Assembly (NCBI GenBank): GCA_023412805.1
Contig: JAEZRM010000095.1
Coordinates: 54,109-118,108, forward strand
Reading direction: 5' to 3'
Length of the DNA: 64,000 nt
Source of the DNA: Pseudomonadota bacterium
GTDB taxonomy: Bacteria > Pseudomonadota > Alphaproteobacteria > Rhizobiales > Hyphomicrobiaceae
Shown here: piece by piece, positions 12,227 to 37,021 of the stretch
How the letters are laid out: every line of letters begins with the position of its first letter
Position numbering within the stretch: position 1 is the first letter of the stretch
Position numbers and translations under genes: made by a program
The notes under the pieces: model-generated
Told to the model about the DNA's origin: nothing
The model's database searches: none
The model's input: only the letters and a program-made list of their open reading frames with translations

Positions 12227-12251
12227 AACGTGTCGCGACCGCCAGCGTTCC
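12227..12251 (-). promoter_or_regulatory. sigma-EcfG-type promoter, GGAAC-N16-CGTT (perfect)
   Basis: Minus strand GGAACgctggcggtcgcgacaCGTT. The -10 element lies 37 nt upstream of the PRC-barrel ATG. Confidence 0.65.
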
Positions 12252-12354
12252 GCGATAGTTCGGCCCTTCTGCTAGCGATCTCGCATCGAGGTCGATTATT
12301 CGCTAACGCCGTCACGCGCTGGTTATGTCGAGGAAGCGAGAGATCGCGCGGCGG

Positions 12355-13464
12355 CTAGTTGGTCTGCCAGCTGCGGTATCTGGGATCATGGCAGTCATCG
12401 CGAAACTCGCGCAGTAGAAGATGATGATGCGCGGATAGCGCGCAAACGGGATCGGTGTTGACCGCGTCACCTGTGAGCGCCAGCGCCTGACAGCGGCAGC
12501 CGCCGAAGTCGATCTCCCTCTGCGGACAAGATCTGCAAGGTTCTTTCATCCATGACGTGCCGCGATAGGCCTGAAACGCTGATCCGCTGAACCAGGCATC
12601 ATGTAGGGAGTGATCGCGGACATTCTCGAATTTGAGGCCGGCTATCGATTGCGCACCATGGCACGGCAAGATCATTCCTGAAGGCGTCACGACCATGAAC
12701 CGTCGCCCCCATCCACCCATACAGGGCTTGGGCTGCACTGCGTAGTAATCCGGCACGACGAAGTCGATTGCGAGAATGCCACGCAGACGTTCGCGAGCAG
12801 CTGAGACAAGCTCCACTGACCGCTCCACCTGCTCCCGCGTCGGCAAGAGCGTTGCGCGGTTGCGGAGCGCCCAGCCAAGATACTGGACATGTGCCACCTC
12901 GAGCCTTTCGGCACCAACTTCAACTGCAAGTTCGATCATGGCCGGTAAGCGAGCGAGGTTGAGGCGATGAACCGGCGCGTTGATCGTGAGAGCCAGCCCT
13001 GCCTCGCGCACAATCCTCGCAGTCGCGATCTTGCGTTCGAGGCCTCGGCGGTACTTTGTTACGACCGCAGTGCCTTCCTCCGTAGTATCCTGCAGCGAGA
13101 TCTGCACATGATCCAGCCCCGCCTCGGCAAGTGCGCTGATGCGTTCACGTCCAAGAGAGACGCCAGCCGTTATGAGATTGGTGTAGAGGCCGGCTCGCAT
13201 TGCCCCGGCAACGAGCTGGACGATGTCCTTGCGCGCAGTAGGCTCTCCGCCCGACAGGTGGAGCTGCAGTACACCGAGTTTGGCGGCTTGCTGGAATACA
13301 TCCAGCCAAAGCTCGGTTGGAAGTTCTGCGCTCGCACGTTCGAGCTCCAATGGATTGGAGCAATAGAGGCATTGCAGCGGGCAACGATGGGTCAGCTCCG
13401 CGAGAAGTCCCACAGGCCGGCCGACGGCCGAGACGCGATTGGCGTGTGGGCTGCAATCGTTCAT
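12355..13464 (-). CDS. pqqE: PQQ biosynthesis radical SAM/SPASM enzyme PqqE
   Basis: LLAELTHRCPLQCLYCSNP (CxxxCxxC) plus a C-terminal SPASM Cys cluster. Last gene of the pqq operon; its ATG overlaps the pqqD stop (ATGA). Confidence 0.93.
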   Translation of the reverse strand: MNDCSPHANRVSAVGRPVGLLAELTHRCPLQCLYCSNPLELERASAELPTELWLDVFQQAAKLGVLQLHLSGGEPTARKDIVQLVAGAMRAGLYTNLITAGVSLGRERISALAEAGLDHVQISLQDTTEEGTAVVTKYRRGLERKIATARIVREAGLALTINAPVHRLNLARLPAMIELAVEVGAERLEVAHVQYLGWALRNRATLLPTREQVERSVELVSAARERLRGILAIDFVVPDYYAVQPKPCMGGWGRRFMVVTPSGMILPCHGAQSIAGLKFENVRDHSLHDAWFSGSAFQAYRGTSWMKEPCRSCPQREIDFGGCRCQALALTGDAVNTDPVCALSAHHHLLLREFRDDCHDPRYRSWQTN

Positions 13465-13784
13465 GGCTTCAATACACCGGCATCTGCGAGCCCTTGCAGG
13501 ACCGGCACTATGTCGCCGGCGATCGTGCCAGCTTCTGCATCATAGGTTTCCGCAAGCTGCGCGGCGATGTCGGCAACCGTGCGTTGACCATCGCATAGGC
13601 GAATTAGATCTGATGCCCACTCGTTCGGCGTCAAGATGCGCTCAGGCGCCAAGACCACCCAGCCGCCTCGAACGGGATCCGGCCGAAATCGAACATGAGG
13701 GCGCAATGCCGGGCGACTATCGAGGTCAATCGGCGCTATGGCGTCGCCGTTGATGTGCTTATTCATGCCGAGCTCCTGCTTCAA
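13461..13784 (-). CDS. pqqD: PQQ biosynthesis peptide chaperone PqqD
   Basis: About 100 aa located between pqqC and pqqE. LRPHVRFRPDPVRGGWVVLAPERILTPNEWASDLIRLCDGQRTVADIAAQL is a typical PqqD. Start could be 13766. Confidence 0.88.
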   Translation of the reverse strand: MKQELGMNKHINGDAIAPIDLDSRPALRPHVRFRPDPVRGGWVVLAPERILTPNEWASDLIRLCDGQRTVADIAAQLAETYDAEAGTIAGDIVPVLQGLADAGVLKP

Positions 13785-15410: not shown

Positions 15411-15433
15411 TCAGTGTCCATCATCAGATGGCG

Positions 15434-15544
15434 CCTATTTGCGTAGCGTGGCGCTGGCGTAGCTGGTCACCTCCATGCCAGCCTGCTCGTCCTGGATGAT
15501 CGGCTTGCTCCAGGTGCGCTTCTTCTGCTTTGCGTTCTTCGTCA
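15434..15544 (-). CDS. pqqA: PQQ precursor peptide PqqA (36 aa; below ORF-track cutoff)
   Basis: Hand translation gives MTKNAKQKKRTWSKPIIQDEQAGMEVTSYASATLRK*. It contains the W-x-K-P and E-V-T-S-Y (Glu-X3-Tyr) PqqA signature. GGAAAGGAG RBS lies 5 nt upstream of the ATG, and the gene sits directly upstream of pqqB. Confidence 0.85.
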
Positions 15545-15575
15545 TCAAACTCTCCTTTCCGGGTTAGTGACGACT

Positions 15576-16964: not shown

Positions 16965-17009
16965 TTGTCTCTCCGGATGCCGTTACTCTTCCGGGTCTAC
17001 TGATTGCGT

Positions 17010-17034
17010 AACAGCAAACGAGCGCAGCCGTTCC
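17010..17034 (-). promoter_or_regulatory. sigma-EcfG-type promoter, GGAAC-N16-TGTT
   Basis: Minus strand GGAACggctgcgctcgtttgcTGTT. The -10 element is 46 nt upstream of the sugar dehydrogenase ATG (first gene of the sdh-pqqABCDE unit). Confidence 0.45.
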
Positions 17035-17040
17035 ATTCAC

Positions 17041-17066
17041 GGAACGCCTCATCCGTGGGCCACGTT
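17041..17066 (+). promoter_or_regulatory. sigma-EcfG-type promoter, GGAAC-N17-CGTT (perfect), back-to-back with the previous one
   Basis: Plus strand GGAACgcctcatccgtgggccaCGTT. It is 185 nt upstream of the GSP26-like ATG, implying a long leader. Confidence 0.45.
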
Positions 17067-17194
17067 CTTCAATCGAGCTGATTGTACCCACCGACTGATC
17101 CTGAAGGCTCCGCCGCTGAAGCTCGTGGAGAACGGCAAGTTACTTCCCTGCAATCTTCGCTCTGAAGCCGGAACCTGAGACGGTCATTCGGAGA

Positions 17195-17219
17195 GGAACT
17201 TGCGCTGATCGCCTTGGTT
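17195..17219 (+). promoter_or_regulatory. sigma-EcfG-like promoter, GGAAC-N16-GGTT
   Basis: GGAACttgcgctgatcgccttGGTT. The -10 element is 32 nt upstream of ATG 17251, with one mismatch in the -10. Confidence 0.4.
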
Positions 17220-17250
17220 GTCCTTCAAAAGGCAACACAGGAGTAGATCG

Positions 17251-17736
17251 ATGCCGACACCGCAGGAGCTCGAAGCAAAATTCTGGAAATCTCTTCAGTC
17301 CGATATGACCATGATGCTCGGTCTCGACGGCTTGGAGGATGGGCACGTGCGCCCCATGACCGCTCAGGTCGAAGGCGCGCGCGGCCCGATCTGGTTCTTC
17401 TCGAGCAAGGACAATGCGTTGGTCGAGAAGCTACCTCAAGGCGACCGCGCTATCGCGACCTTTACTTCGAAGGGCCATGACCTCTTCGCTACTTTGCACG
17501 GTAAGCTCAGCCTCGACAACAATCCAGCCACAATAGACAGGTTGTGGAACCGGTACGTCGCCGCATGGTTCGAAGGCGGCAAGTCGGATCCGAAGCTGGC
17601 TCTTCTCCGCCTCGATCCCGAGCGCGCCGAAATATGGTTGGATGCATCGAGCATTGTTGCGGGTATCAAACTGCTTCTCGGTGCCGATCCGAAGGAACAG
17701 TACAAGGAGAACGTGGCCAAGGTGGAGCTTCGCTAA
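17251..17736 (+). CDS. General stress protein 26-like, pyridoxamine 5'-phosphate oxidase family
   Basis: Start at ATG 17251 (AGGAG RBS). MPTPQELEAKFWKSLQSDMTMMLGL...RPMTAQVEGARGPIWFFSSKDNALV...IDRLWNRYVAAWFEGGKSDPKLALLRLDPERAEIW matches the GSP26 pattern. Confidence 0.85.
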   Translation: MPTPQELEAKFWKSLQSDMTMMLGLDGLEDGHVRPMTAQVEGARGPIWFFSSKDNALVEKLPQGDRAIATFTSKGHDLFATLHGKLSLDNNPATIDRLWNRYVAAWFEGGKSDPKLALLRLDPERAEIWLDASSIVAGIKLLLGADPKEQYKENVAKVELR

Positions 17737-17781
17737 CTCGTGAGCTCGTCATTCATTCGGCTCAGAGCCGCTAGACGATTG

Positions 17782-18733: not shown

Positions 18734-18738
18734 GACAC

Positions 18739-18876: not shown

Positions 18877-18903
18877 GGAACAGATGACCAAACAATTCGT
18901 TCC
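18877..18903. promoter_or_regulatory. Palindromic bidirectional sigma-EcfG-type promoter
   Basis: GGAACagatgaccaaacaattcGTTCC. The plus strand reads GGAAC-N16-CGTT (perfect, toward the 18993 operon). The minus strand reads GGAAC-N16-TGTT (toward 18813/18733). Confidence 0.6.
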
Positions 18904-19270: not shown

Positions 19271-19492
19271 ATGGCCAAATGCGATGTATGCGGAAATGAC
19301 TATGACAAGGCCTTCAAGGTTATTCAGGGTCAGCGCGAGATGACTTTCGACAGTTTCGAATGCGCGGTTCATGCAATGGCGCCGCGTTGTGAGCATTGTG
19401 AGTGCCGCATCATCGGCCACGGTGTCGAAGCTGGAGGGAAGTTATTCTGTTGTGCGCATTGTGCGACCCACGAGGCGGGCCATGCGCACTAG
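19271..19492 (+). CDS. Cys/His-rich small metal-binding protein (73 aa)
   Basis: Start at ATG 19271 (GAGGAG RBS). MAKCDVCGNDYDKAFKVIQGQREMTFDSFECAVHAMAPRCEHCECRIIGHGVEAGGKLFCCAHCATHEAGHAH has 9 Cys in CxxC / CxC / CCxxC arrangements. It belongs to a conserved but uncharacterised family that I recognise only by pattern. Confidence 0.7.
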   Translation: MAKCDVCGNDYDKAFKVIQGQREMTFDSFECAVHAMAPRCEHCECRIIGHGVEAGGKLFCCAHCATHEAGHAH

Positions 19493-19986: not shown

Positions 19987-22560
19987 GTGGAAACTGACGC
20001 GATCGAAAATCGCACCGAGAGCGGGGAGAGCGAGCAGCCGCGGAGCGTCGTCGTGATCACGGGCGCAAGTGGCTTCATCGGACGCGCCCTGGCGACAGAG
20101 TTGGCGGGCCAGTACGATGTCATCGGCCTCGACTTCGCTTTGCCTGATGCTCCCTCATCCACGTTTGAAGCGATCCGCGTTGATCTAACCTCCGACCAGA
20201 GCGTCAAGGCAGCGTTCGGCCGTATCCGCGCCGCCTACGGCAATCGCATAGCGAGCGTCATTCATCTGGCCGGCTACTACGATCTTTCTGGCGATCCCAA
20301 TCCCAAATACGAAGCGGTCACCGTGCGCGGCACTGAGCGGCTTCTCCGGGCGCTGGATGATTTCGATGTCGAGCAGTTCATCTACGCCAGCACCATGCTG
20401 GTGCACGGCCCGACCGATCGCGGACGACCGATCGACGAGGATGCACCGCTGCAGCCGAAGACACCCTATCCTCAATCGAAGGCGGATACGGAGCATCTGC
20501 TCCGTGAAAAGCGCGGAGATATCCCGCTCATCATACTGCGTCTCGCGGGCGTGTATGATGAGCGCTGCCGTGCCGCATTTCTCGCCCAGCAGATTGCCAA
20601 TATCTACGAGCGGCAGTTCGTCAGCTACGTCTATCCCGGCGATCCAGAAAGCGGACAACCCTATCTTCACCTCGACGATCTTACTGATGCGGTCGTCCGC
20701 CTGATCGAGCGCAGATCCGATCTCTCCGAAGACATGACGTTGCTGCTCGGCGAGCCGGAGACGATGGGCTATGCCGATCTGCAAAAGGACATCGGTCGAT
20801 TGCTTCACGGTGAGGAATGGGAAACGCAGCAGATCCCCGCCCCACTCACCAAAACCGGCCAATGGCTGCAGGAGGATGTACTCGATCAGGATCCTTTCGT
20901 TCAGCCATGGATGATCGACCAGGCAAGCGACCACTACGAGATCGACATCTCACATGCCAAGGAGACGCTGGCTTGGTGGCCCAAGCATCGGCTTCGGCAG
21001 ACACTCCCCAAGATCATTGAAGCCCTCAAGGCCGATCCACCAGGATGGTACACGGCGAACAAACTGAATGCGGCACAGGTCGCGGCGTCCGATCCGGTCC
21101 TCGAGGAGGCCAAGATCCGCACGGAACGGCTGTCACGCAAGGATCGCCTGCGGGTAGAGGAAGAGCTGAACACGCAGCACAGCCAGACAACTTGGGCCCA
21201 CCTCGCCAATGCGGCGCTCGGTTTGTGGCTCGTCGCGAGCCCGTTCGCGCTAGGCCTGTTCGATCCGATTGGCAATGTCGCATCGCCCCCGGCGGCGGGA
21301 CACGCGCTCGCTGCCGCGGAACTCCGAAATCTGCGGCTCGGCGTCAGCGAAATGATCAGCGGCGCCGCAATTGTCCTCTTATCGCTGCTGGCCCTGAACC
21401 GCGCCAGATCGTGGGCACAGTGGGCGAGCGCCGCCGTCGGGGTGTGGATCCTGTTCGCCCCGCTCGTGTTCTGGACGACCAGCCCCGCGGCCTATGCCAG
21501 CGACACGCTGATCGGGATGCTGGTCATCGTGCTAGCCGTGATCGTTCCAGCGCAGCCCGGCATCAGCCGTGAGGCCCTCGCCTCACCTGCCGACGTTCCA
21601 TTGGGGTGGAGCTATTCGCCCTCGAGCTATTCGCAGCGCATGCCCATCGTTGCGCTCGCGTTCATCGGGCTCTTCATCTCCCGCTATCTTGCTGCCTACC
21701 AGCTGGGCCATATCGACGGCACCTGGGATCCGTTCTTTCAGGGCATCGAGGACCAGCAGAATGGAACGGAAGCGGTAATCACGTCGGCTGTGTCCAAAGC
21801 CTTCCCGATTGCCGATGCCGGCTTCGGTGCCATTGCCTACGCGCTCGACATTCTCACCGGTGCGATCGGCGATCGACGGCGCTGGCGCACAATGCCCTGG
21901 CTCGTACTCATTTTCGGCCTGCTCATCATTCCGCTCGGGCTCGTCAGCGTCGGCTTCATCATCATCCAGCCAACCGTCATCGGGACCCTGTGTGCACTCT
22001 GCCTCATGCAGGCAGCGGTCACGATCATCCTTGTCCCCTATTCGATCGACGAGGTGATCGCGACACTCCAGTACCTTCTCCAAAGCCGCCGAGCCGGGCG
22101 CTCGCTCTGGAAGACGCTATTTGTCGGTGGACCGGCGTTCGATGAACGCCGCGGAGCCGATGAGGACATGAGCAAGCTCGGCGACACAGTACGCGATTTC
22201 TTTCGGGGGGGCGTGACCTACCCATGGACGCTGGTTGCGACGGTCGGTGTCGGTATTTTGCTGATGTCCTCGCCGTTGATCGCCGGCAGCACCGGCACGC
22301 TGTATTTCAGCGATCATATTGCAGGGTGCCTGGCGATCACCATTGCAGTCACCGCTTTTGCGGAGGTCGCGCGTGCGGCGCGATTCCTGAATATTCCTCT
22401 CGGTTTGTGGGTAATGGCCTCGCCGTTTCTACTGACCGGCAGTTCAGCCTTAGCAACGGTTCTGAGCATAGCCGCGGGCTTGGCGCTCGTCGCATTGAGC
22501 CTGCCTCGCGGCACGTTGAGCGGCGAACACTATGGCGGCTGGGATCGGATGATCGTCTAG
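19987..22560 (+). CDS. Tri-domain fusion: NAD-dependent epimerase/dehydratase (SDR) plus SPW-repeat membrane domains plus VKOR-like membrane domain
   Basis: GTG start. VVVITGASGFIGRAL Rossmann motif, with an SDR catalytic YxxxK candidate at PYPQSK. It is followed by more than 12 predicted TM helices with SPW-like repeats (GLWLVASPFALGLF, GLWVMASPFLLTG, LLMSSPLIAG) and a TM CxxC (IGTLCALCLMQAAV) in a VKOR-like 4-5 TM block. The usual VKOR loop Cys pair is not evident. Confidence 0.6.
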   Translation: METDAIENRTESGESEQPRSVVVITGASGFIGRALATELAGQYDVIGLDFALPDAPSSTFEAIRVDLTSDQSVKAAFGRIRAAYGNRIASVIHLAGYYDLSGDPNPKYEAVTVRGTERLLRALDDFDVEQFIYASTMLVHGPTDRGRPIDEDAPLQPKTPYPQSKADTEHLLREKRGDIPLIILRLAGVYDERCRAAFLAQQIANIYERQFVSYVYPGDPESGQPYLHLDDLTDAVVRLIERRSDLSEDMTLLLGEPETMGYADLQKDIGRLLHGEEWETQQIPAPLTKTGQWLQEDVLDQDPFVQPWMIDQASDHYEIDISHAKETLAWWPKHRLRQTLPKIIEALKADPPGWYTANKLNAAQVAASDPVLEEAKIRTERLSRKDRLRVEEELNTQHSQTTWAHLANAALGLWLVASPFALGLFDPIGNVASPPAAGHALAAAELRNLRLGVSEMISGAAIVLLSLLALNRARSWAQWASAAVGVWILFAPLVFWTTSPAAYASDTLIGMLVIVLAVIVPAQPGISREALASPADVPLGWSYSPSSYSQRMPIVALAFIGLFISRYLAAYQLGHIDGTWDPFFQGIEDQQNGTEAVITSAVSKAFPIADAGFGAIAYALDILTGAIGDRRRWRTMPWLVLIFGLLIIPLGLVSVGFIIIQPTVIGTLCALCLMQAAVTIILVPYSIDEVIATLQYLLQSRRAGRSLWKTLFVGGPAFDERRGADEDMSKLGDTVRDFFRGGVTYPWTLVATVGVGILLMSSPLIAGSTGTLYFSDHIAGCLAITIAVTAFAEVARAARFLNIPLGLWVMASPFLLTGSSALATVLSIAAGLALVALSLPRGTLSGEHYGGWDRMIV

Positions 22561-22630: not shown

Positions 22631-23143
22631 CTAGCTGGATTGATGCCGTTTGGCCTTGATGACACTCAGGTGCCCGCTATGCTCCACGTAGGCGACGTTG
22701 ACTTCCCCGATGTCGTCGATCCCCTGCTCTCGCAGGGCTGCGAGGAGCTCATCTTCGGTCAGCATTTCCCGCTGCATGTTCTCTCTCAGCATTTGACCTC
22801 CGGAGACAACCCTGAGAGGTGCTGACTGTAACCAAGGGCGCAACGTGGGATAGCGCCACCCGAGCCAGTCGAGGACGTACTCCCAACCCACTATGGTCAG
22901 AACCAGCACGATTCCTTCGGTGACGGACTGATACTCCTTTGCAAGTCCGTTCTGGGCCGCATCCGCGATCAATACGATCACAAGCAGATCCGCAGTGCCG
23001 AAGCGCCCGGACTGTCTCCTCGCGACAAAGCGGAGGATCACGAACAGCGCGAGGTACATAATGGTCCCGCGCACGATCACTTCCAGCAGCCCCATCGAGG
23101 GTTGGAACAACGAATACCAGTCTATGTGGAAAGCGCCCACCAT
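22631..23143 (-). CDS. DUF421 (YetF-like) membrane protein
   Basis: LEVIVRGTIMYLALFVILRFVARRQSGRFGTADLLVIVLIADAAQN...MLTEDELLAALREQGIDDIGEV.AYVEHSGHLSV is the typical DUF421 pattern. Confidence 0.8.
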   Translation of the reverse strand: MVGAFHIDWYSLFQPSMGLLEVIVRGTIMYLALFVILRFVARRQSGRFGTADLLVIVLIADAAQNGLAKEYQSVTEGIVLVLTIVGWEYVLDWLGWRYPTLRPWLQSAPLRVVSGGQMLRENMQREMLTEDELLAALREQGIDDIGEVNVAYVEHSGHLSVIKAKRHQSS

Positions 23144-23178: not shown

Positions 23179-23203
23179 AACACCATCTGCAGCACCGAGT
23201 TCC
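23179..23203 (-). promoter_or_regulatory. sigma-EcfG-type promoter, GGAAC-N16-TGTT
   Basis: Minus strand GGAACtcggtgctgcagatggTGTT. The -10 element is 36 nt upstream of the DUF421 ATG. Confidence 0.45.
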
Positions 23204-23256: not shown

Positions 23257-23281
23257 GGAACTTTAGGATTGGCAGCGCGAT
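23257..23281 (+). promoter_or_regulatory. Weak sigma-EcfG-like site, GGAAC-N16-CGAT
   Basis: GGAACtttaggattggcagcgCGAT lies only about 20 nt upstream of the UdgX-like ATG. There is a mismatch in the -10 and the leader is very short. Confidence 0.25.
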
Positions 23282-23300: not shown

Positions 23301-23948
23301 ATGACAAACGAGCCAAACATCCGATCTGCCCCTGCGGAAACAGACGGAGAAGAGCCGAGAGCTCTTGCCGACCTCAATGCGCTGATCCTGTCAGCCCGGC
23401 ATTTGATCACCGGATCGACACGCGCCGTACTGGGTGAAGGGCCGATCGGCGCTCCCATAGCGCTGGTCGGCGAGCAGCCTGGTGATCAGGAGGATCTGCA
23501 GGGTCGCCCATTCGTAGGCCCTGCGGGGCGTCTTCTCGACCGCGCCCTCGCGGAGGCAGGCATCAATCGCAAACGCGCGTATGTGACGAATGCCGTCAAG
23601 CATTTCAAGTTCGAGGAGCGCGGCAAGCGACGTCTTCACAAAAAGCCCTCGGCGGGCGAGGTCCGTCACTATCGCTGGTGGCTGCGAAAGGAGCTGGAGC
23701 TTGTGCACCCGCGGATCGTCGTCGCGCTTGGTGCCACGGCCGTGCTTGCCCTCGCGGGAAAGGCACTGGCAATCGGCCGCTTCAGGGGGCCAGCCGACTT
23801 CGATGGCCAGGCGGGTTACATCACCGTCCATCCCTCCTATCTGCTGCGCCTGCGGGGAGAGAAAGCGCGCGACCTCGGCTTCGCTTCGTTCGTGGCAGAC
23901 TTGAATAGGGTTCGCGCGCTTGCAGCGCCTTCACGCGCGAAGCAGTGA
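23301..23948 (+). CDS. UdgX-like uracil-DNA-binding protein (UDG superfamily, family-4 related)
   Basis: GEQPGDQEDLQGRPFVGPAG motif A. VKHFKFEERGKRRLHKKPS insertion matches, from memory, the KRRIH loop unique to mycobacterial UdgX. HPSYLLR motif B. Confidence 0.7.
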   Translation: MTNEPNIRSAPAETDGEEPRALADLNALILSARHLITGSTRAVLGEGPIGAPIALVGEQPGDQEDLQGRPFVGPAGRLLDRALAEAGINRKRAYVTNAVKHFKFEERGKRRLHKKPSAGEVRHYRWWLRKELELVHPRIVVALGATAVLALAGKALAIGRFRGPADFDGQAGYITVHPSYLLRLRGEKARDLGFASFVADLNRVRALAAPSRAKQ

Positions 23949-26164: not shown

Positions 26165-26189
26165 AACAACTGCAGCGATAGGTGGTTCC
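26165..26189 (-). promoter_or_regulatory. sigma-EcfG-type promoter, GGAAC-N16-TGTT
   Basis: Minus strand GGAACcacctatcgctgcagtTGTT. The -10 element is 37 nt upstream of the yciF-like ATG, heading a probable yciF-SDR-DUF72 unit. Confidence 0.45.
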
Positions 26190-26246: not shown

Positions 26247-27542
26247 TCAGTTTCCCCGCCTTACCCGAAGAATTCTCGATGATCCGATGTCTCGATCATC
26301 GGTGAGAGCGTAGACAGCACCGTCCGGCCCGATGCGCACATCCCGCACGCGAGCGTTCAATGGCACACGCTCCTCGTAGGCAACGCGATCGCCCATCATA
26401 TGGAGCACGACGAGTCCCGTCGAGACCAGCCCGCCGACAATGAATGCGCCTCGCCATCCCGGAAACTCGTCACCTTCGTACAGGGCCATTCCGGATGGGC
26501 CGATGACCGGATCCCAATAGTATACGGGCTGCTCGGTCCCGGATTTTGCGGTTGTCCCCTTACCGACTGGCTTGCCGGAATATTCCACGCCGTAGGTCGC
26601 ATCAGGCCAGCCGTAATTGAGCCCCGCCTCCGGGCGGTTCAGCTCATCTCCTCCTTTCGGGCCGTGCTCGACGATCCAAAGCCGGCCATCTCGATCGAGT
26701 GCGGCGGATTGGGTATTGCGATGGCCGTAGCTCCAGATTTCGGGCAGAGCGCCTTTTGTCTCGACGAAAGGATTGTCGGACAGCGGCTTTCCGCTCTGAT
26801 CGATCCTGAAAACCTTGCCGAGGCCGCTGCCGAGATCCTGTGCCTGCGTGCGCACTTTCGCGTCCGACCGCTCGCCTACGGTCACGAACAGCTCACCGCT
26901 GGAACCAAACACAAGGCGCGAACCGTAGTGCTTATCACCATCGTAAGTGGGCATCTGCTGGAATATGACATCGACGTTCGTCAGCGCGCCACTGCCGCTG
27001 TCGTCGAGGGCCAATGTCGCGGAGGCGACGCTGGTTGCGTTGCCGCCTTCGCGCGGCTCAGAGAACGAGAAGAAAATGCGGTTCGAGGTGTCGAAGTCTG
27101 GCGCCAGGACAACATCGAGCAGTCCGCCCTGCCCTTTGCTGTCGACCTTGGGGACTCCAGAGAACGGCTCACCGGCACGGCCGTCCCGCGAAATAACATA
27201 CATACGGCCATCCTTTGCAGTCGCCAGAAGGCGGCCGTCTGGAAGAAAGCGTATTGCCCACGTCAGAGGCAATTGCTCAGCAAACATTGATGTCGTCGTT
27301 CGCACCATCTCAGCCGGCTGCGGAGCTCGCGTCTGCCCGGCAAACGCTGGCTTCTGGTGGGGCGCATTGGGCGGCTGCGTTTCGACTGATTCAGCCGCGT
27401 CTCCCGCCCGCGCTCCCTTTGCCGGAGGTGCTCCTTCCGCTTCTTTACTGGGCGACGTACCACCGCCCGATTGCGCAAGAATGGGGAGGGCAAAAAGAGA
27501 AGATAGGATGGTGCCCACCAATAGGGGGATGGCGCGAGGCAT
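26247..27542 (-). CDS. PQQ-dependent sugar dehydrogenase (YliI/soluble aldose dehydrogenase-like), second copy
   Basis: Signal peptide MPRAIPLLVGTILSSLFALPILAQS. HRNTQSAALDRDGRLWIVEHGPKGGDELNRPEAGLNYGWP is typical of sGDH/YliI propellers. Confidence 0.85.
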   Translation of the reverse strand: MPRAIPLLVGTILSSLFALPILAQSGGGTSPSKEAEGAPPAKGARAGDAAESVETQPPNAPHQKPAFAGQTRAPQPAEMVRTTTSMFAEQLPLTWAIRFLPDGRLLATAKDGRMYVISRDGRAGEPFSGVPKVDSKGQGGLLDVVLAPDFDTSNRIFFSFSEPREGGNATSVASATLALDDSGSGALTNVDVIFQQMPTYDGDKHYGSRLVFGSSGELFVTVGERSDAKVRTQAQDLGSGLGKVFRIDQSGKPLSDNPFVETKGALPEIWSYGHRNTQSAALDRDGRLWIVEHGPKGGDELNRPEAGLNYGWPDATYGVEYSGKPVGKGTTAKSGTEQPVYYWDPVIGPSGMALYEGDEFPGWRGAFIVGGLVSTGLVVLHMMGDRVAYEERVPLNARVRDVRIGPDGAVYALTDDRDIGSSRILRVRRGN

Positions 27543-27759
27543 GAAGCTCCTCCTTCACCGGTCTGACGACTGCTGCCGCACCCCCTCCGCTGCGCCGCAT
27601 ATCAGCCTAAGACGATGAAGGACCATCTGTTCCACGCTCCTTGATCAACTAATCTTTATATCCAGGCGTGGACGTAGTTCGATGACACCGTGTGCACGGC
27701 GCGCGTCAATCGATGTGAGAAGGGTTCGGACCTCGCACCACGGATGGGGTTGTTCAAGG

Positions 27760-29642: not shown

Positions 29643-30431
29643 TCAGTGCTTGGCGGATCCGGGTGCGGCCTGCTGGCGATGCGCTTCGGCGAGCAGAGAA
29701 GCAGGCGTCACGTTGGCAATGGCCGACTGCAGCTTGTTGTGCCATCCGCTGACCACATCGCCGTCGCCATTCATCATGGCGCGGAAGCCCGTTGCAGCCA
29801 CATCGGCGGGGTCGTCCTTCTGGCTCTGACCAACCTTGGTATCGAGCATATCGGCCCGTTCGAAGAAGTCGGTCTCCGTGGCGCCCGGCATCAGGCATGT
29901 GACCGTCACGCCGCTGTCGGCAAGCTCTGCCCGCAATGCGAACGAAAAGGAGTCGAGGAACGCCTTGCTCGCGTTGTAGACCGCTTGATAGGTTCCCGGG
30001 ATGAACCCCGCAATCGATCCGACGATAAGAACGCGTCCCTTCCCACGCTCACGCATATCGCGACCGACGCTCTGTATCAGATAGAGCGTCCCGCTGATGT
30101 TGGTATTAACGACATGGATGACGTCATTGAAGTCCTGATCGAGAAAACCTTTGCCGAGGCCCCGCCCGGCGTTCGCCAGGAGCGCGTCCACCGGTCGGCC
30201 ACCGATAGCTCCCAGAAGCTTGTCGACGCCTTCGAGCGTGCTGAGATCTGCTTCTACAGCCTCGCAACGAACACCTATCGTCTTGAACTGCTCCGCTGCC
30301 GACTGGATTTGCGCTTCGTCCGCTGCCACGACGAGATCGAAGCCTTCGCGCGCACAGCATATCGCAAGTTCATACCCAATCCCCGTGGACGCTCCAGTTA
30401 CGACGGCAAGGGGTCTATCGAGCTTTGCCAT
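29643..30431 (-). CDS. SDR family oxidoreductase
   Basis: Start at ATG 30429-30431 (GGAGGA RBS). [23 protein letters not shown]; YNASKAF catalytic motif. The stop is 10 nt before the ADH start, so this is probably an operon. Confidence 0.88.
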
Positions 30432-30486: not shown

Positions 30487-30514
30487 GGAACGTATGCGCA
30501 TTCATCTCCGTTCC
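30487..30514. promoter_or_regulatory. Palindromic bidirectional sigma-EcfG-type promoter (perfect on both strands)
   Basis: GGAACgtatgcgcattcatctcCGTTCC. The plus strand reads GGAAC-N17-CGTT (toward yihY-like). The minus strand reads GGAAC-N17-CGTT (toward SDR-ADH, with the -10 element 58 nt from ATG 30431). Confidence 0.65.
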
Positions 30515-30559: not shown

Positions 30560-31411
30560 ATGTGGAACGTCTTCGTAACTGCGGGTAACGATTGGCTGCG
30601 CCACCGTGATGCGCGGCTTGGTGCGGCGCTGGCCTACTACTCTGTGTTCTCTCTGGGCCCCTTGCTGCTCATTGTCGTGAGCATTGCCGGCGTGTTCTTC
30701 GGCCGTGAGACCGTCTCCACTGCGCTCAACGATCAGCTCCGCTCGCTGCTTGGCCCCGCGGGCAGTCAGGCAGTGGAGGCCATGCTTCAAGGTGCCGGCT
30801 CGCAGACAGGAGGCGCGATAGCAGCGGTAATCGGCGTTCTCCTCCTACTGATTGCAGCGCTCGGCGTCGTCGCCCAGCTCAAGGATGCCTTGAACACGAT
30901 CTGGGAGACGAAGGAGCCGGAGCATGGTGGGATCTGGGCATACATCCGCACGTACCTCGTCTCCTTCGCCGGGATACTCGCCCTTGGTTTCCTGCTAGCC
31001 GTATCGCTGGTCGTCAGCACCGCGTTATCAGGCCTCTCCGTTTGGCTCGGCGCCGGCGAAAGCCTCATATGGTCGGCGCTAAACTTCATTGTCTCCCTTG
31101 GCGTTCTGTCAGCGCTCTTCGCCATGCTGTTCAAGTGGTTTCCCGATGCCGAGGTGGCGTGGCGGGATGCCTGGATCGGAGGGCTCACCACAGCCGTGCT
31201 GTTCAACATCGGGAAGGCCGCCATTTCCTGGTACATCGGCACGCAGGGCCTGGCGTCGACGTACGGCGCCGCCGCATCCCTCGTCGTTCTGCTGATTTGG
31301 GTCTACTACTCCGCGCAAATCCTGCTCTATGGCGCCGAGGTCACGCACGTGCTCGGACGTATGGACCCGTCGCCAGCCAGCACTTCCATTCCTTCCGACC
31401 AGCTCCTCTGA
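30560..31411 (+). CDS. YihY/BrkB family membrane protein
   Basis: WLRHRDARLGAALAYYSVFSLGPLLLIVVSIAG... is typical of YihY. The start is moved downstream of the promoter to ATG 30560 (MWNVF...). The ORF-track start at 30425 would overlap the divergent gene and the promoter. Confidence 0.8.
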   Translation: MWNVFVTAGNDWLRHRDARLGAALAYYSVFSLGPLLLIVVSIAGVFFGRETVSTALNDQLRSLLGPAGSQAVEAMLQGAGSQTGGAIAAVIGVLLLLIAALGVVAQLKDALNTIWETKEPEHGGIWAYIRTYLVSFAGILALGFLLAVSLVVSTALSGLSVWLGAGESLIWSALNFIVSLGVLSALFAMLFKWFPDAEVAWRDAWIGGLTTAVLFNIGKAAISWYIGTQGLASTYGAAASLVVLLIWVYYSAQILLYGAEVTHVLGRMDPSPASTSIPSDQLL

Positions 31412-31441: not shown

Positions 31442-31466
31442 GGAACAGTGCGTGCTTTGGCGCGTT
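31442..31466 (+). promoter_or_regulatory. sigma-EcfG-type promoter, GGAAC-N16-CGTT (perfect)
   Basis: GGAACagtgcgtgctttggcgCGTT. The -10 element is 34 nt upstream of the cinA-like ATG. Confidence 0.65.
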
Positions 31467-31499: not shown

Positions 31500-32006
31500 A
31501 TGTCGCAAGGCATCGCCATCACGGATCTTTCAGCTCGCGTTGTGGACGCAGCGCGAACATCCAAGACCAGGCTCATTACTGCCGAGTCCTGCACTGCGGG
31601 GGCATTGACGACACTCCTTGCCGACACACCCGGCGCAGGAGACGTACTGGTCGGCGGCGTCGTCACCTATTCGAAGTCTTGCAAGGTGGACCTGCTCGGC
31701 ATTCCGCCAAGCCTCATCGCATCGTGCTCGGCCGTCAGCGCAAAGGTAGCCGCGGCGATGGCACAAGGGGCACTCGACAAATGCCCTTCGGCCGATATCG
31801 CCATCGCAGTCACGTGTGTCGGGGGCCCCAAGCCTGACGATGACGGCAATCCCGTCGGGCTCGCATATCTTGCCGTGCAACGGCGCGGCGCCGCAATAAA
31901 TGTGCGCCACCTCCTAATCGAGGCGCAAAGCTCAGGCCGTATTCGCGGAGACGTGCTCGCTCGCGCGTTGTCTCTGCTGCTCGAGGTCCTGACGTCGAAA
32001 GGCTAG
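31500..32006 (+). CDS. CinA-family (PncC-type nicotinamide-nucleotide amidase domain) protein
   Basis: LITAESCTAGALTTLLADTPGAGDVLVGGVVTYSKSCKVDLLGI...VSAKVAAAMAQGAL is the canonical CinA C-terminal domain. Confidence 0.88.
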   Translation: MSQGIAITDLSARVVDAARTSKTRLITAESCTAGALTTLLADTPGAGDVLVGGVVTYSKSCKVDLLGIPPSLIASCSAVSAKVAAAMAQGALDKCPSADIAIAVTCVGGPKPDDDGNPVGLAYLAVQRRGAAINVRHLLIEAQSSGRIRGDVLARALSLLLEVLTSKG

Positions 32007-32080
32007 CCGCGCCGCCACTACTCCGCCAGCGAAGGGCCGCCAGTCATGCCGGCATACTCCTGCGAAGCTGAGCCGATCCG

Positions 32081-34369
32081 CTACGCGCCATGCTGAGGAC
32101 GAACCCTGACCGGTACGGACTTGGCTGCCGGGGTCTTGCTTTGCTCGGCGAACTGCCAGAGCGGGACGAGCGGGTTGCACTCCGGAAAGTAAGCCGCGCA
32201 GTTGCCGGGAGGAATATCGTACTCCAATGCCTTCAAGCCGGTGACATTCCGATGCACGCCATCATCGACGGCCGTCGTCAGCTCGATCTCGGCTTCGTGC
32301 GAGATGCCCATGCGAAGCATGTCGTCCTTGTTCATCATGACGATCATGCGGGAGCCGTAGATTCCACGGAACCGGTCATCGTATCCATAAACCGTCGTAT
32401 TGAACTGGTCGTTCGACCGCAGGGTTATGAGGCGCAGCACGTCGCCGTCGCTGCCATCATCGAAACTTGCGGAAAGCGCCTTGGGAATTTTGAAGTTTGC
32501 GCGCTTGGTATCGGTTTCCCATACCCTGTCACGCGCAGCGATCGGCCGAGCAAATCCACCCGGCGTATCGAGGCGCGCATTGAAATCGCGAAACTGATCC
32601 GGATAGGTCTTCTCTATCGCATCGCGGACGAGGGCGTAGTCGGCCACCCAGTCGTCCCACGGAACGCGCGGATTGGACGGCAGCGTCGCCTTCGCGAGCT
32701 CCGCGATGATGCGGGGCTCGGACAGCAAATGCTCACTGGCCGGACTGGCAACACCGCGCGAGGCATGAATGCAGGTGGTCGAGTCCTCGACAGTCACGAT
32801 CTGCGGCCCGGAGGCCTGTTCATCAATCTCCGTCCGAGCAAGACATGGGAGCAGGTACGTCGTTCGCGCAGTTATCAAATGCGTGCGATTGAGCTTCGTG
32901 GCGATCTGGACTGAGAGGTCAAGATTCCGCCAAGCAGGCTCCATGACGCCATGGTCCGGAATAGCGCGAACGAAGTTGCCGCCGAGCCCGATGAACGCAC
33001 GCACGTCGCCGGAGATCACACCCTCACAAGCTCCGATAGTTGCCAGGCCTTCCTTCTGCGGCGGCGCGAACCCGTAGAGATCGGCCAATCGATCGAGAGG
33101 AACCAATTCAGGCTTTTCGGCGATGCCTACCGTTCGCTGCCCCTGGACGTTCGAGTGGCCTCGGATCGGGCATATTCCTGCACCCGGCTTACCGATATTT
33201 CCGCGCAGCAGCATGAAGTTGACGAGCATCTGAACATTGTTGACGCCAAGCCGATGCTGCGTGAGGCCCATGCCATACACCGCAATCACGGACTGGGCCG
33301 AATTGTAGGTCTTCGCCGCGGCTTCCAGGGCGGCACGCGTAAGTCCGCTCTCCTTTTCTATGTCGTCCCACGTCGTCGCTGTGACGAAAGCCAGAAACTC
33401 TTCGAAGCCGTGGGTGTGCGTTTTGATGAATGCCGTATCCAGCACCGCATCCTGATCGCGTCCGGACGTCTCGGCCCACTGGAACAGCGCCTTCGACAGG
33501 CCGATCAGAGCGGCAATGTCGCCGCCGGCCCGCACCTGGTAGTACTGCGTAGCAATGTTCGTCGTGTCATGCGTGAGCATCTGACCGGGCCGCTGGGGAT
33601 TGATGAATTCCTCCCAGCCCTTCTCACGGAGCGGATTGAAGACAACGATCGGAACGCCACGCTCACGCGCCTCCTGCAAATTGTGGAGCAGACGCGGAGA
33701 GTTGGTTCCGACGTTCTGCCCGAAGGCGAAGATGCAATCCGTCTTCGAAAAATCCTCGATGAGGACTGTGCCGACAGGCGTGCCAATGCTCTGTGGGAGA
33801 GCTACCGACGTCGTCTCGTGACACATGTTCGAGCTATCGGGCAGGTTGTTGCTGCCGTATAGGCGGGCTAGAAGCTGGTACATGTACGACGCTTCGAGCG
33901 ACGCCCTGCCGGACGCGTAGAAGATGACCGACTCCGGCTCGCAGGTTGCCAATTTCGTGCCGATATCGGCAAAAGCCTCTTCCCACGTCACCGGAACGTA
34001 TCGGTCGATGCCGGCATCGTATCGCATCGGATGCGTCAGCCGCCCCTCGTTCTCAAGGTCGAAGTCCGTCCATTGCAGGAGTTCAGACACGGCGTGCCGG
34101 TCGAAGAATTCCGGGGTCGTTCGCTTCGACGTCATCTCCCAGAAGGCGGCCTTTGCTCCATTCTCGCAGAACTCGGCAGTGTGCGGCTCGGCGGGCTTCG
34201 CCCATGCGCAACTACTGCACATGTAGCCCCGGACCTTGTTGTGATGACGTAAGAGGTCAGGCGCGGTGCTGATCGCACCCTGTCGAGTGGAGTGACGTAT
34301 CAGCGATTTAACCGATCCCCAGCCTCCCGCCGGGCCATCATATGCCTTGAACTCCACATCGTCGGTCAT
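32081..34369 (-). CDS. FdhF/YdeP family molybdopterin oxidoreductase
   Basis: 762 aa. N-terminal YDGPAGGWGSVKSL..., Cys cluster MCSSCAWAKP, and MopB domains typical of YdeP. Confidence 0.88.
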   Translation of the reverse strand: MTDDVEFKAYDGPAGGWGSVKSLIRHSTRQGAISTAPDLLRHHNKVRGYMCSSCAWAKPAEPHTAEFCENGAKAAFWEMTSKRTTPEFFDRHAVSELLQWTDFDLENEGRLTHPMRYDAGIDRYVPVTWEEAFADIGTKLATCEPESVIFYASGRASLEASYMYQLLARLYGSNNLPDSSNMCHETTSVALPQSIGTPVGTVLIEDFSKTDCIFAFGQNVGTNSPRLLHNLQEARERGVPIVVFNPLREKGWEEFINPQRPGQMLTHDTTNIATQYYQVRAGGDIAALIGLSKALFQWAETSGRDQDAVLDTAFIKTHTHGFEEFLAFVTATTWDDIEKESGLTRAALEAAAKTYNSAQSVIAVYGMGLTQHRLGVNNVQMLVNFMLLRGNIGKPGAGICPIRGHSNVQGQRTVGIAEKPELVPLDRLADLYGFAPPQKEGLATIGACEGVISGDVRAFIGLGGNFVRAIPDHGVMEPAWRNLDLSVQIATKLNRTHLITARTTYLLPCLARTEIDEQASGPQIVTVEDSTTCIHASRGVASPASEHLLSEPRIIAELAKATLPSNPRVPWDDWVADYALVRDAIEKTYPDQFRDFNARLDTPGGFARPIAARDRVWETDTKRANFKIPKALSASFDDGSDGDVLRLITLRSNDQFNTTVYGYDDRFRGIYGSRMIVMMNKDDMLRMGISHEAEIELTTAVDDGVHRNVTGLKALEYDIPPGNCAAYFPECNPLVPLWQFAEQSKTPAAKSVPVRVRPQHGA

Positions 34370-34562
34370 TCATCACTCCAAGGACACGCGAGCCGCCAGC
34401 ATCACCTCTTTGGGCTAATCCGAGAGAATGCAGATGGTTCCGAGGCAGGAGCGATGGCGCTCGACGACGGCTGACCTCCAAAAACTGCGGAAACGATGGG
34501 TACATGGTGACGGCGCGGGCAACCAAAGGGCCGCATTCCTTCTTCGGATGGAACTCCAGCGT

Positions 34563-34587
34563 GCAACATACCTGCGGGCGACGCGTT
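34563..34587 (+). promoter_or_regulatory. Near-consensus sigma-EcfG-like site, GCAAC-N16-CGTT
   Basis: GCAACatacctgcgggcgacgCGTT lies 87 nt upstream of the katE ATG, with one mismatch in the -35. Confidence 0.3.
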
Positions 34588-34673
34588 AGAGGTCGAAGGA
34601 CCGAGTCCTAGTCAGTCGCTGTCTAACAGGCAATTCGAGCCGGCAAGCGCAGCGCAGCATCGCAGGTGCCAGA

Positions 34674-36800
34674 ATGACCGCCCGAAAATCCAAGCCTCAC
34701 GGCAACAAGCCTAACGGCAAGAAGCCCCCGAGCTCGTCGAAGTTGCGTACAGGCAAAGGGGGGGAGTTGCACCAGACGGCAACGATACCCGATGAGCGGT
34801 TGACGACCAATCATGGGGTGCCGTTGAGCGACAATCAAAACTCGCTCAAGGGGGGATCGCGCGGCCCGACACTTCTCGAAGACATGATCCTCCGCGAGAA
34901 GATCCAGCACTTCGACCACGAGCGCATTCCCGAGCGCATCGTTCATGCCAGGGGCTCCGGCGCTCATGGCTATTTTGAGCTGACGAAGTCTTTGGCGAAG
35001 CATTCGCGCGCCAAGGTGCTCACCGAAGTGGGGACCAAGACTGAAGTATTTGTTCGCTTCTCGACAGTGGCTGGCGGCGCGGGCTCCGTGGACACGCCGC
35101 GTGACGTGCGCGGGTTTGCCGTCAAGTTCTATACCAAGGAGGGCAACTGGGATCTGGTCGGCAACAACATTCCCATCTTCTTCATCCAGGACGCCATCAA
35201 GTTTCCTGACCTCATCCACGCCGTGAAGATGGAGGCCGATCGCGGCTATCCGCAAGCCGCGAGCGCCCACGATACATTCTGGGACTTCGTTGGACTCATG
35301 CCCGAGTCGACACACATGGTCACATGGGCGATGTCCGATCGGACAATTCCGCGCTCGTTTCGGACCATGGAGGGTTTCGGCGTCAACACGTTCCGGCTCG
35401 TGAATGGCAAAGGCGAAGGCACGTTCGTCAAGTTCCATTGGAAGCCTAGGCTTGGTCTGCAGTCCACGTGCTGGGATGAAGCGGTCAAGATCGCGGGCGC
35501 CGATCCCGATTACCACCGCCGCGATCTCTTTGAAGCCATTGCCGCCGGTGACTTCCCGGAATGGGACTTCGGCGTGCAACTGATCAGCGAGGAGCAGGCA
35601 GCTAAGCTTCCTTTCGACATCCTCGATGCGACCAAGCTCATACCGGAGGAGCTCATCCCCATTCAGATCGTCGGTCGCCTCGTTCTCGATCGCAATCCCG
35701 ACAATTTCTTTGCGGAGACGGAGCAGGTCGCATTCCTGCCGACCAACATCCCGCCGGGCATCGACTTCTCGGAGGACCCGCTGCTTCAGGGCCGGCTGTT
35801 TTCCTATCAAGACACGCAGCTTTCCCGTCTCGGGACGGTCAACTTCCATCAGATCCCCGTCAATCGCGCGAAGGGTTGCCCGTTCCAGAACCTGCAACGT
35901 GATGGCCAGATGCAGACGCAGGTGTTCAAGGGCCGCGCCAATTACGAGCCCAACAGTCTGGGTGAAGTGGGTGAAGCGGGCGGGCCGCGTGCCGACCCGG
36001 AAGGCGGCTTCCGCTCGTTCCAGTTGCCAGTCGAGGATCGGAAGGTGCGACTGCGCTCGGAAAGCTTCGGCGACCACTACAGCCACGCGCGCCTTTTCTA
36101 TCGATCGCAAAGCGAAGTCGAACAGGCACATATTGCGAGCGCCTTTGTATTCGAGCTGTCAAAGGTCAGCTTGGAGCACGTGCGAAAGCGCGTTCTGGCA
36201 AACTGGCGGAATGTGGACGAGGACTTGGCTCGGAGAATTGCTGACGGGCTCGGGATGGAGCTTCCTGCGAAATCGAAAGCCTTCGTTGAACCGAAGGAGC
36301 TGGAGCCCTCCCCGGACCTCCGCATTATCGGGAAGTATGCGCCGAGCTTAAAAGGCCGGACCATAGCGCTGCTTGTTACAGAAGGCGCGGACGGGAAGAT
36401 TGTGAAAGCACTCTCCCAGCAAGCGGGCGCGGACGGAGCCACCGTCAAGATTGTCGCGCCAAGAGTGGGCGGCGTGGCGTTGAAGGGCGGAGGACGTGTC
36501 TCCGCTGACGGCCAGCTCGCTGGAATGCCTTCCGTGCTTTTCGACGCTGTTGTGCTCGTGTTGTCGGACGAGGGCTGCAGTGAACTTCTTAAGGAAAGCG
36601 CTGCCGTGGAATTCGTCCAGCACGCCTTCGCTCATCTGAAGGCCATCGGCTACACCCGCCTGGCGATGCCGCTTCTCGAGAAGGCCAATGTGACGACCGA
36701 TGAGGGTATTGTCGATGTCGGCGAGGACGTGGCGGGCTTCCTATCGCAGGCGCGCACGCGCATTTGGGCGCGAGAGCCGGGGGTACGTACGTTGAGCTGA
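34674..36800 (+). CDS. katE: Large-subunit monofunctional catalase HPII
   Basis: 708 aa. [34 protein letters not shown] and a C-terminal flavodoxin-like/DJ-1-like extension typical of KatE. Confidence 0.95.
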
Positions 36801-36996
36801 CAGTGAGACGCGCAAGGTCCGCGCCCAGCCCATGGCCAACGCCCTCTGAAATTGGAAGCGGGGCGCCGCGTGGGATGCCTGGAGACCGAGCGGCTCACGC
36901 AACCGAGCCGATCGGGCTGAGCAGAGGCACATCTACCAGTCGCGCAAACGGCCTACTGGCAACCACGAGCCATTCGATGTGGCGCCAAGGTTGGCT

Positions 36997-37021
36997 GGAA
37001 CTTTGCGTCGATATGCCTGTT
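36997..37021 (+). promoter_or_regulatory. sigma-EcfG-type promoter, GGAAC-N16-TGTT
   Basis: GGAACtttgcgtcgatatgccTGTT. The -10 element is 36 nt upstream of ATG 37057 of the 2Fe-2S subunit gene. Confidence 0.45.

Follow-up and report, generated by a model that had tools for sequence, protein, structure and literature searches.

The subject of this analysis is a genomic island in a 64,000-nucleotide (nt) stretch of contig JAEZRM010000095.1 (assembly GCA_023412805.1, positions 54,109 to 118,108), hereafter the window, and the sites upstream of its genes that resemble promoters of EcfG, the sigma factor of the general stress response (GSR) of Alphaproteobacteria. The host proteins AcnA and Tig are 66-68% and 47-52% identical to those of Hyphomicrobiales, respectively, and much less similar to those of other classes, which places the host among Alphaproteobacteria, nearest to Hyphomicrobiales. 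The island is bounded by copies of an attachment (att) repeat and inserted at a tRNA gene, as defined by the following features.

11193-41818, no strand: genomic island of 30.6 kb, delimited by att repeats, an empty site in the sister-lineage contig L021 and GC content at third codon positions (GC3)
11108-11192, no strand: left att repeat, an orphan copy made up of the 3'-terminal 46 nt of tRNA-Asp and the 39 nt that follow
41819-41903, no strand: right att repeat, overlapping the intact tRNA-Asp
41858-41934, (-) strand: tRNA-Asp (GTC), the integration target (ARAGORN; Rfam tRNA, 73.5 bits)

Gene content and insertion at tRNA-Asp

Annotation with Pfam gives the island about 30 genes in about 16 transcription units. 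Oxidative stress is represented by KatE and YciF, and the care of DNA and protein by UdgX and CinA. A sugar dehydrogenase of the type dependent on pyrroloquinoline quinone (PQQ) is followed by pqqA, read at 15411-15575, and by pqqBCDE, and a second glucose/sorbosone dehydrogenase (GSDH) is encoded elsewhere in the island. The molybdoenzymes are of the PaoABC/CoxSML-like and YdeP/FdhF types. Further cargo includes a PRC-barrel protein, a GSP26-like protein with pyridoxamine-oxidase fold, DUF421/YetF, YihY/BrkB, SDRs, a zinc-dependent alcohol dehydrogenase (Zn-ADH), DUF72, a PCC-domain protein and small membrane proteins. Gene names given by an initial annotation, which was made from the sequence without database searches, were confirmed by Pfam and, for UdgX, by matches in the PDB. 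The best PDB relatives of this uracil-DNA glycosylase (UDG; 23301-23948, (+) strand) are M. smegmatis UdgX (3e-42), and it has the KRRLH loop. A second gene of the UDG superfamily lies in the core flank at 51402-52040(+).

A fusion protein of 857 amino acids (aa), encoded at 19987-22560(+), joins an NAD-epimerase domain to SPW repeats and a VKOR domain. Relatives of this protein are patchily distributed, with proteins 54-56% identical in Stella, Desertibaculum and Burkholderiaceae metagenome-assembled genomes (MAGs) and 37-42% identical in Planctomycetes and Chlamydiae. A comparison with GTDB species representatives returned no close relative, all matches being at most 56% identical.

The direct repeat at 11108-11192 and 41819-41903 spans 85 nt with 93% identity between its copies, and the 3' end of tRNA-Asp faces the island, which forms a block of low GC3. 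In L021, which is about 92% identical to the window at the nucleotide level along the syntenic run from clpP and tig through TAXI to DUF2189, the site is empty: DUF2189, tRNA-Asp and DUF488 are directly adjacent. A three-way alignment with this empty site places both junctions exactly at the repeat. GC3 amounts to 0.61-0.77 inside the island versus 0.78-0.88 in the flanks, and overall GC to about 0.60 versus 0.63-0.66. The att repeats, the empty site and the lower GC3 directly show that the island was acquired horizontally, as the initial annotation had suggested. Near-identical copies of the island occur in several metagenomes. Location on a plasmid was considered and rejected, as a megablast search of PLSDB with 11.1-36 kb matched only single genes, at 70-78% identity, and never a block.

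Insertion at the 3' end of a tRNA gene with a direct repeat, deviating composition and absence from a close relative are the marks of a tRNA-integrated island, and they are shared with islands of the type of the Mesorhizobium symbiosis island, which sits at tRNA-Phe. Unlike those, the island has a functionally and regulatorily homogeneous cargo, and genes for integration, excision, conjugation or transposition were not found in it. Pfam detected no integrase, transposase, relaxase or type IV secretion system domain in the scanned open reading frames (ORFs) of the island or in its unannotated ends. The tRNA-proximal end is the usual place of an integrase; there, 40882-41286(+) encodes a truncated N-terminal domain of CheR that lacks the methyltransferase domain and is probably a pseudogene remnant. 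This fragment was also the only result of a search for integrase remnants among the ORFs of both island ends with relaxed Pfam thresholds (E <= 1). With no mobility genes found in the scanned ORFs, the island does not qualify as an autonomous integrative element, be it an integrative and conjugative element (ICE), an integrative and mobilizable element or a prophage-like one.

The closest comparison of this kind is ICE3 of Sphingopyxis granuli TFA (bioRxiv 10.64898/2025.12.11.693706), which resembles the island in its tRNA association, stress-responsive cargo and occurrence in Alphaproteobacteria. In contrast to the island, ICE3 is a conjugative element of 213 genes with its own sigma/anti-sigma, MarR and XRE regulators and defence systems, modules that the island is without. 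Expression of ICE3 is not attributed to EcfG promoters in that report.

EcfG-type sites upstream of the island units

We scanned both strands of the window for the pattern GGAAC-N16/17-YGTT, taking 100 dinucleotide-preserving shuffles as the control. Enrichment over shuffled controls had been proposed as a check by the initial annotation, and it is pronounced: the window holds 12 matches versus 1.2 +/- 1.1 expected, with a maximum of 4 in any shuffle, so that none of the 100 reaches 12. To partition the matches, a gene map was built from GC3-based ORF choice, Pfam and gene calls on identical metagenome contigs. The intergenic DNA of the island (4,457 bp between 12.2 and 37.0 kb) contains 11 of them, versus 0.09 expected from first-order Markov resampling of the same segments, where the maximum in 2000 runs was 3. 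There are none in the 26.4 kb of island coding DNA and none in the 7,120 bp of flank intergenic DNA, the latter in agreement with the remark in the initial annotation that no such site was noticed upstream of the flanking housekeeping genes inspected. The 26.1 kb of flank coding DNA contribute one match. This sole perfect match outside the island (50312-50336, (+) strand) lies within the coding sequence of a glutathione S-transferase and agrees with the roughly one match per window that chance would produce.

Varying the spacer offers a control that preserves composition and half-site frequency. For GGAAC-Nx-YGTT with x from 12 to 22, the counts are 0, 2, 1, 0, 9, 3, 0, 0, 0, 2 and 2, an excess at spacers 16 and 17 only. 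The spacers of the sites are unrelated in sequence, indicating that the sites do not stem from a dispersed repeat. The sites and the units they precede are as follows.

12227-12251, (-) strand: predicted EcfG-type promoter of the PRC-barrel gene (11828-12190), GGAAC-N16-CGTT, 36 nt to ATG
17010-17034, (-) strand: predicted EcfG-type promoter of the sugar-dehydrogenase-pqqABCDE operon (16964 down to 12355; sdh), GGAAC-N16-TGTT, 45 nt to ATG
17041-17066, (+) strand: predicted distal EcfG-type promoter of the GSP26-like gene (17251-17736), perfect match, 184 nt to start
17195-17219, (+) strand: proximal candidate of the GSP26-like gene, GGAAC-N16-GGTT, one mismatch, 31 nt to ATG
18877-18903, both strands: palindromic site GGAAC-N17-GTTCC, perfect on both strands (matches 18877-18901(+) and 18879-18903(-))
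23179-23203, (-) strand: predicted EcfG-type promoter of DUF421/YetF (22631-23143), perfect match, 35 nt to ATG
23257-23281, (+) strand: weak candidate of the UdgX-like gene (23301-23948), GGAAC-N16-CGAT, one mismatch, 19 nt to the gene
26165-26189, (-) strand: predicted EcfG-type promoter of yciF(DUF892)-SDR-DUF72 (26128 down to 23931), perfect match, 36 nt to ATG
27609-27633, (-) strand: weak candidate of the second PQQ-type sugar dehydrogenase (26247-27542), GGAAC-N16-TCTT, 66 nt, alone not significant
30487-30514, both strands: palindromic site GGAAC-N18-GTTCC, perfect on both strands (matches 30487-30512(+) and 30489-30514(-))
31442-31466, (+) strand: predicted EcfG-type promoter of cinA (31500-32006), perfect match, 33 nt to ATG
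34417-34441, (-) strand: weak candidate of the YdeP/FdhF-type Mo-oxidoreductase (32081-34369), GGAAC-N16-GATT, two mismatches, 47 nt
34563-34587, (+) strand: predicted variant promoter of katE (34674-36800), GCAAC-N16-CGTT, one mismatch, 86 nt
36997-37021, (+) strand: predicted EcfG-type promoter of the paoABC/coxSML-like molybdo-flavoprotein operon (37057-40825), perfect match, 35 nt to ATG

The pattern scan reproduced all site coordinates given by the initial annotation, along with its claim that correctly oriented sites precede most island units. A perfect site stands before 11 of the approximately 16 transcription units, and katE is the twelfth, with a conserved GCAAC variant. All 11 matches are intergenic and co-oriented with the downstream gene, and each of the four tandem intergenic regions has its site on the correct strand. 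The -10 box, which had been placed mostly 32-58 nt from the start codon, lies 33-57 nt upstream at seven sites and 20-91 nt upstream at ten of the 11; the extremes are 20 nt at a micro-protein whose start is uncertain, 91 nt at orf87 and 184 nt at the distal GSP26 site. In their boxes, spacers of 16-17 nt, co-orientation and mostly less than 100 nt of distance to the gene, the island sites thus display the traits of EcfG-type promoters. For the GSP26-like gene two sites had been named, of which 17041-17066 is a perfect match and 17195-17219, with its GGTT, is reduced to a candidate. The former lies back-to-back with the sdh promoter at 17010-17034(-), separated from it by a gap of 6 nt.

Imperfect matches are far more frequent, with 45 one-mismatch matches in the window (about 1.8e-4 per position), and one within 60 nt of a start is expected by chance in roughly 5% of cases. 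The weaker sites noticed earlier before the UdgX-like gene and katE carry one mismatch each (CGAT and GCAAC, respectively). The one-mismatch sites of UdgX and of the second GSDH, as well as the proximal one of GSP26, are kept as candidates only. Upstream of the small ORFs orf64 and orf89 no EcfG-type site was found. Sites of sigma-70 consensus are fewer than expected (1 versus 5.8 and 1 versus 3.2), with none in the intergenic DNA of the island, which lends weak support to the idea that the island has few alternative promoters. Scans for this consensus are known to perform poorly in GC-rich Alphaproteobacteria. A scan for intrinsic terminators, intended to delimit the transcription units, gave 19 versus 13.7 and 12 versus 9.9 expected, no clear excess over shuffles.

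The palindromic sites (N17 at 18877, N18 at 30487) both lie between divergent units, in intergenic regions of 128 and 134 bp. At 18877-18903, the putative (-) promoter faces genes for a 39-aa micro-protein and a 299-aa membrane protein, and the (+) promoter faces orf87-orf73-PCC-epimerase/SPW/VKOR. The putative (-) promoter at 30487-30514 lies 57 nt from the ATG of SDR-ZnADH at 30431, and the (+) promoter 47 nt from the ATG of yihY/BrkB at 30560. At the level of sequence, the palindromes can be read as shared bidirectional promoters, so that each of the two compact divergent regions would use a single GGAAC-N17/18-GTTCC element for both directions. The -35 box of one strand would overlap the -10 box of the other, and hence each polymerase binding event would commit to one direction.

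Such an architecture has been described for nepR-ecfG/gsrP of Erythrobacter litoralis, where RNA-seq read starts speak for a bidirectional palindromic EcfG promoter (Fiebig et al. 2019, bioRxiv 10.1101/641647); a bidirectional EcfG site was proposed by Staron et al. 2009, as cited in that preprint. We therefore rejected the palindromic sites as a novelty, the architecture being already published (bioRxiv 10.1101/641647). The E. litoralis element, GGAAC-N17-GTTCC between divergent genes, corresponds to the N17 site at 18877, and the N18 site at 30487 is one nucleotide longer. The E. litoralis element serves a regulatory locus, whereas the island palindromes precede cargo genes. In the operon downstream of the palindrome at 18877-18903, orf73 (19271-19492, (+) strand) encodes a protein of 73 aa that is rich in Cys and His and faintly resembles prokaryotic metallothionein, although the match (E = 0.009) does not reach the Pfam cutoff.

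Conservation of the sites in other lineages

Two diverged homologous clusters, L027 (75-85% nucleotide identity) and L033 (75-88%), allow for a comparison of the boxes with the DNA around them. At the PRC, sdh, distal GSP26 and katE sites, 54 of 54 box positions are identical across L027 and L033, versus 58 of 97 spacer positions (60%). The boxes of the PRC site are kept in L027, where the DNA upstream of the -35 box is unalignable. The sdh site is kept in both clusters, 44 nt from the ATG in L033, and so are the variant boxes of katE; the back-to-back sdh/GSP26 pair is kept in L027 and the SDR/yihY palindrome (30487-30514) in L033. Between the window and L033, even the GGAAC-N16-GATT block of the Mo-oxidoreductase is kept.

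Orthologues of single units extend this picture. In Desertibaculum, a perfect site precedes the ATG of the fusion orthologue by 37 nt, and the PCC orthologue of the same lineage lies on the other strand with a perfect site of its own. The Stella orthologue carries a one-mismatch site at 56 nt. On a plasmid of Rhizobium acidisoli, the alcohol dehydrogenase (ADH) orthologue (80% amino-acid identity) is preceded by GGAAC..GGTT, with one mismatch, at 35 nt, and katE on a plasmid of Sphingomonas LK11 by GCAAC-N17-CGTT, likewise with one mismatch, at 29 nt. No motif was found upstream of four non-alphaproteobacterial orthologues, including Comamonas katE and the beta-proteobacterial and planctomycete fusions. 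The loci from outside the class hold one perfect match in 137 kb, and the alphaproteobacterial non-island loci none in 85 kb. L018 and L020, which share DUF2189 at >= 90% identity and are not syntenic, served as background DNA only. With the exception of cinA in L033, the boxes thus appear to be under selection, and the association of motif and gene is restricted to Alphaproteobacteria.

L027, L033, Desertibaculum and the Rhizobium plasmid hold the same promoter-plus-gene units in a different order and setting. This suggests that the unit of promoter plus gene is the thing exchanged. The same boxes in front of orthologous units in other lineages further indicate that the promoters travelled with their genes, in which case the island would have been regulon-compatible on arrival.

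Several smaller observations concern the arrangement of the sites in these relatives. L033 contains an extra 158-aa gene of unknown function (4598-5074, (-) strand) between yihY and the SDR-ADH operon. This gene occupies the (-) side of the conserved palindrome, with 37 nt between the putative promoter and its start, and the SDR-ADH operon has a one-mismatch site of its own; the arrangement is an example of unit-level reshuffling. In L027 (3283-3317), the called start of GSP26 lies 8 nt downstream of the -10 box of a perfect site, pointing to either a leaderless mRNA or a mis-called start. At the same gene, the window has about 150 nt more than L027, including the proximal imperfect site. L016, a Geminicoccaceae MAG, holds five perfect EcfG-type sites in 10.8 kb, among them a palindromic pair before a PRC-barrel gene (625-652) and a site 31 nt before a dehydrogenase E1 component (8179-8203). 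Hence, dense clusters of EcfG-type sites occur in other Alphaproteobacteria too.

Proposed control by a host EcfG switch and competing explanations

The arrangement of the island sites is best explained by EcfG regulation, as judged from published regulons. The regulons of EcfG (a sigma factor of group ECF15 of the extracytoplasmic function, ECF, family) in Sphingomonas melonis Fr1, Sphingopyxis granuli TFA and Erythrobacter litoralis resemble the island in boxes, spacing and a position less than 100 nt upstream, and they also share with it target families and many small hypothetical or membrane proteins. The S. granuli consensus, GGAAC-N16-CGTT, combines a rigid -35 with a flexible -10 box (PMC7083833), which matches the invariant GGAAC and the mixture of CGTT and TGTT in the island. 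In S. melonis, the motif is enriched in the last 100 nt before coding sequences, and the EcfG-dependent genes include GCAAC variants as well as a family-4 UDG with a weak -10 box (PMC6599016). The regulon of that strain comprises PRC-barrel, GSP26, two catalases, CoxS/M/L homologues, Zn-ADH, the family-4 UDG and a glucose/sorbosone dehydrogenase (PMC6599016). Seven gene families of the island are shared with this EcfG-dependent set, bearing out the overlap with known regulons that the initial annotation had pointed to.

No transcription factor or sigma factor gene was found in the island. Sigma factor, anti-sigma factor and PhyR domains were likewise missing from the scanned ORFs of the window, among which not every flank ORF was included, and Rfam returned two tRNAs only and no GSR-type small RNA. 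Since the island has no regulator gene that we could find, we infer that its expression depends on the PhyR-NepR-EcfG partner switch of the host. We assign a probability of about 0.8 to the reading of the locus as a tRNA-Asp island of stress units with EcfG promoters under such host control. That the sites are functional EcfG-type promoters is supported in silico by footprints, taxon specificity, gene content and the scarcity of alternative promoters; recognition by EcfG, induction under stress and the presence of EcfG in the host are what we infer from them.

According to this reading, site-specific recombination would have brought the island into the 3' end of tRNA-Asp, and the island would have lost, or never carried, an integrase. 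At least 12 of its units start with a -35 GGAAC and a -10 (C/T)GTT box at a spacing of 16-17 nt, the recognition sequence of sigma-EcfG (ECF15). Upon stress, phosphorylated PhyR would bind NepR and free EcfG, which in turn would direct RNA polymerase to the island promoters and cause a block-wise induction.

A number of observations weigh against this reading. As the initial annotation had already stated, phyR, nepR and ecfG were not found among the scanned ORFs of the window, a set that leaves part of the flank ORFs aside. Four or five units (UdgX, the second GSDH, the Mo-oxidoreductase, orf64 and orf89) are without a convincing site, single one-mismatch matches are compatible with chance, and a long distance separates the distal GSP26 site (184 nt) and the orf87 site (91 nt) from the respective start codon. 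In L033, the cinA site is degenerate (CGAAC..ATGTC). The genome-wide background was estimated from about 33 kb of flank and about 85 kb of DNA from relatives. Finally, a -35 box containing AAC and a -10 box containing CGT are common to many ECF sigma factors, so that gene content and taxon distribution form the basis for assigning the sites to EcfG.

The last point leads to the strongest competing explanation, namely that the sites are true ECF-type promoters read by another ECF sigma factor, either an EcfG paralogue with a specialised regulon or a member of an unrelated ECF group. ECF promoters in general have an AAC -35 and a CGT -10 box. Moreover, two to six EcfG paralogues with partly distinct targets are described for several Alphaproteobacteria (PMC7083833; PMC3892343). 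However, the exact boxes and the 16-17 nt spacing equal the published EcfG consensus, the seven gene families recur in an EcfG regulon that was defined by experiment, and the motif accompanies orthologues in three or more orders of Alphaproteobacteria but none outside this class, which is the distribution of EcfG itself. We therefore regard another ECF sigma factor as unlikely.

The sites could also be relics that served as EcfG promoters in the donor, with the island silent or otherwise driven in its present host, so that the regulon module would be a matter of history rather than of function. Signs of decay, such as the missing integrase, the truncated CheR fragment and the decayed cinA site of L033, would fit this scenario. 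On the other hand, 11 perfect sites have stayed intact while the spacers diverged to about 60% identity between lineages, which argues for continuing purifying selection; in addition, all of the approximately 30 ORFs are intact and near-identical copies persist in several metagenomes, making relic sites less likely still. That the pattern is an artefact of chance or composition, or that it marks a repeat element, the operator of a dimeric transcription factor or a site of recombination, is effectively refuted: two sites are palindromic, as operators often are, and the GC content of the island is below that of the flanks, but seven of the nine site regions are not palindromic, the orientation always fits the downstream gene, the spacers are unrelated in sequence with an excess at lengths 16 and 17 only, and 11 matches face an expectation of 0.09 in composition-matched resampling of the island intergenic DNA.

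Regulation by the host EcfG thus remains the preferred reading, and it bears on the long-standing question of how horizontally acquired genes connect to the regulatory network of their host. In the usual picture, acquired genes are silenced and then slowly rewired. The island would represent a clean natural case of the opposite, with about 30 acquired genes already under the promoter of a class-wide sigma factor. Since the genes already carry a class-conserved promoter, neither rewiring nor an imported regulator would be needed. The precise insertion, together with the isogenic-like empty site in the sister lineage, makes this hypothesis of pre-wired acquisition directly testable. Candidate additions to the general stress response would be PQQ synthesis, UdgX, DUF72, the epimerase-SPW-VKOR fusion, YihY and the PaoABC-like enzyme.

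Published EcfG regulons are genome-wide, that of S. granuli comprising 79 direct GSR operons across the whole genome (PMC7083833), whereas the island packs at least 12 units into 30.6 kb, and the window yielded no regulator gene. Motif, sigma factor, regulon logic, bidirectional sites and tRNA islands are all known; what is unusual here is the regulon-pure organisation of the island. Our search of the literature on EcfG/PhyR and islands or horizontal transfer found no tRNA-bounded, strain-variable island that consists almost entirely of EcfG units and is free of regulator and mobility genes. With a confidence somewhat better than even, we propose that the island is a portable slice of a regulon, free of regulator and mobility genes, which brought at least 12 units in one integration at tRNA-Asp immediately under the PhyR-NepR-EcfG switch of the recipient, and that the EcfG-promoter unit is the module that is exchanged and reshuffled. 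Conservation of the promoter code across the class is what would make the island immediately subject to the recipient switch. If true, general stress regulons would grow by gaining pre-wired units.

Outside the island, two features of the flank were observed. Synteny between the window and L021 (window 42500-64000, L021 11535-20804) stops right after DUF488. Beyond this gene, L021 has LysE, glpX and a luciferase-like gene, and the window has a DSPc-like phosphatase, an IlvD-family dehydratase and a DJ-1 protein. Across 42500-64000, GC3 is at core levels, and the synteny break next to DNA of such composition indicates a second rearrangement or variable region abutting the tRNA-Asp locus. In the core flank, a gene with a RES domain, typically the toxin of a RES-Xre toxin-antitoxin pair, lies at 57353-57880(-) between a DUF2066 gene and rnd.

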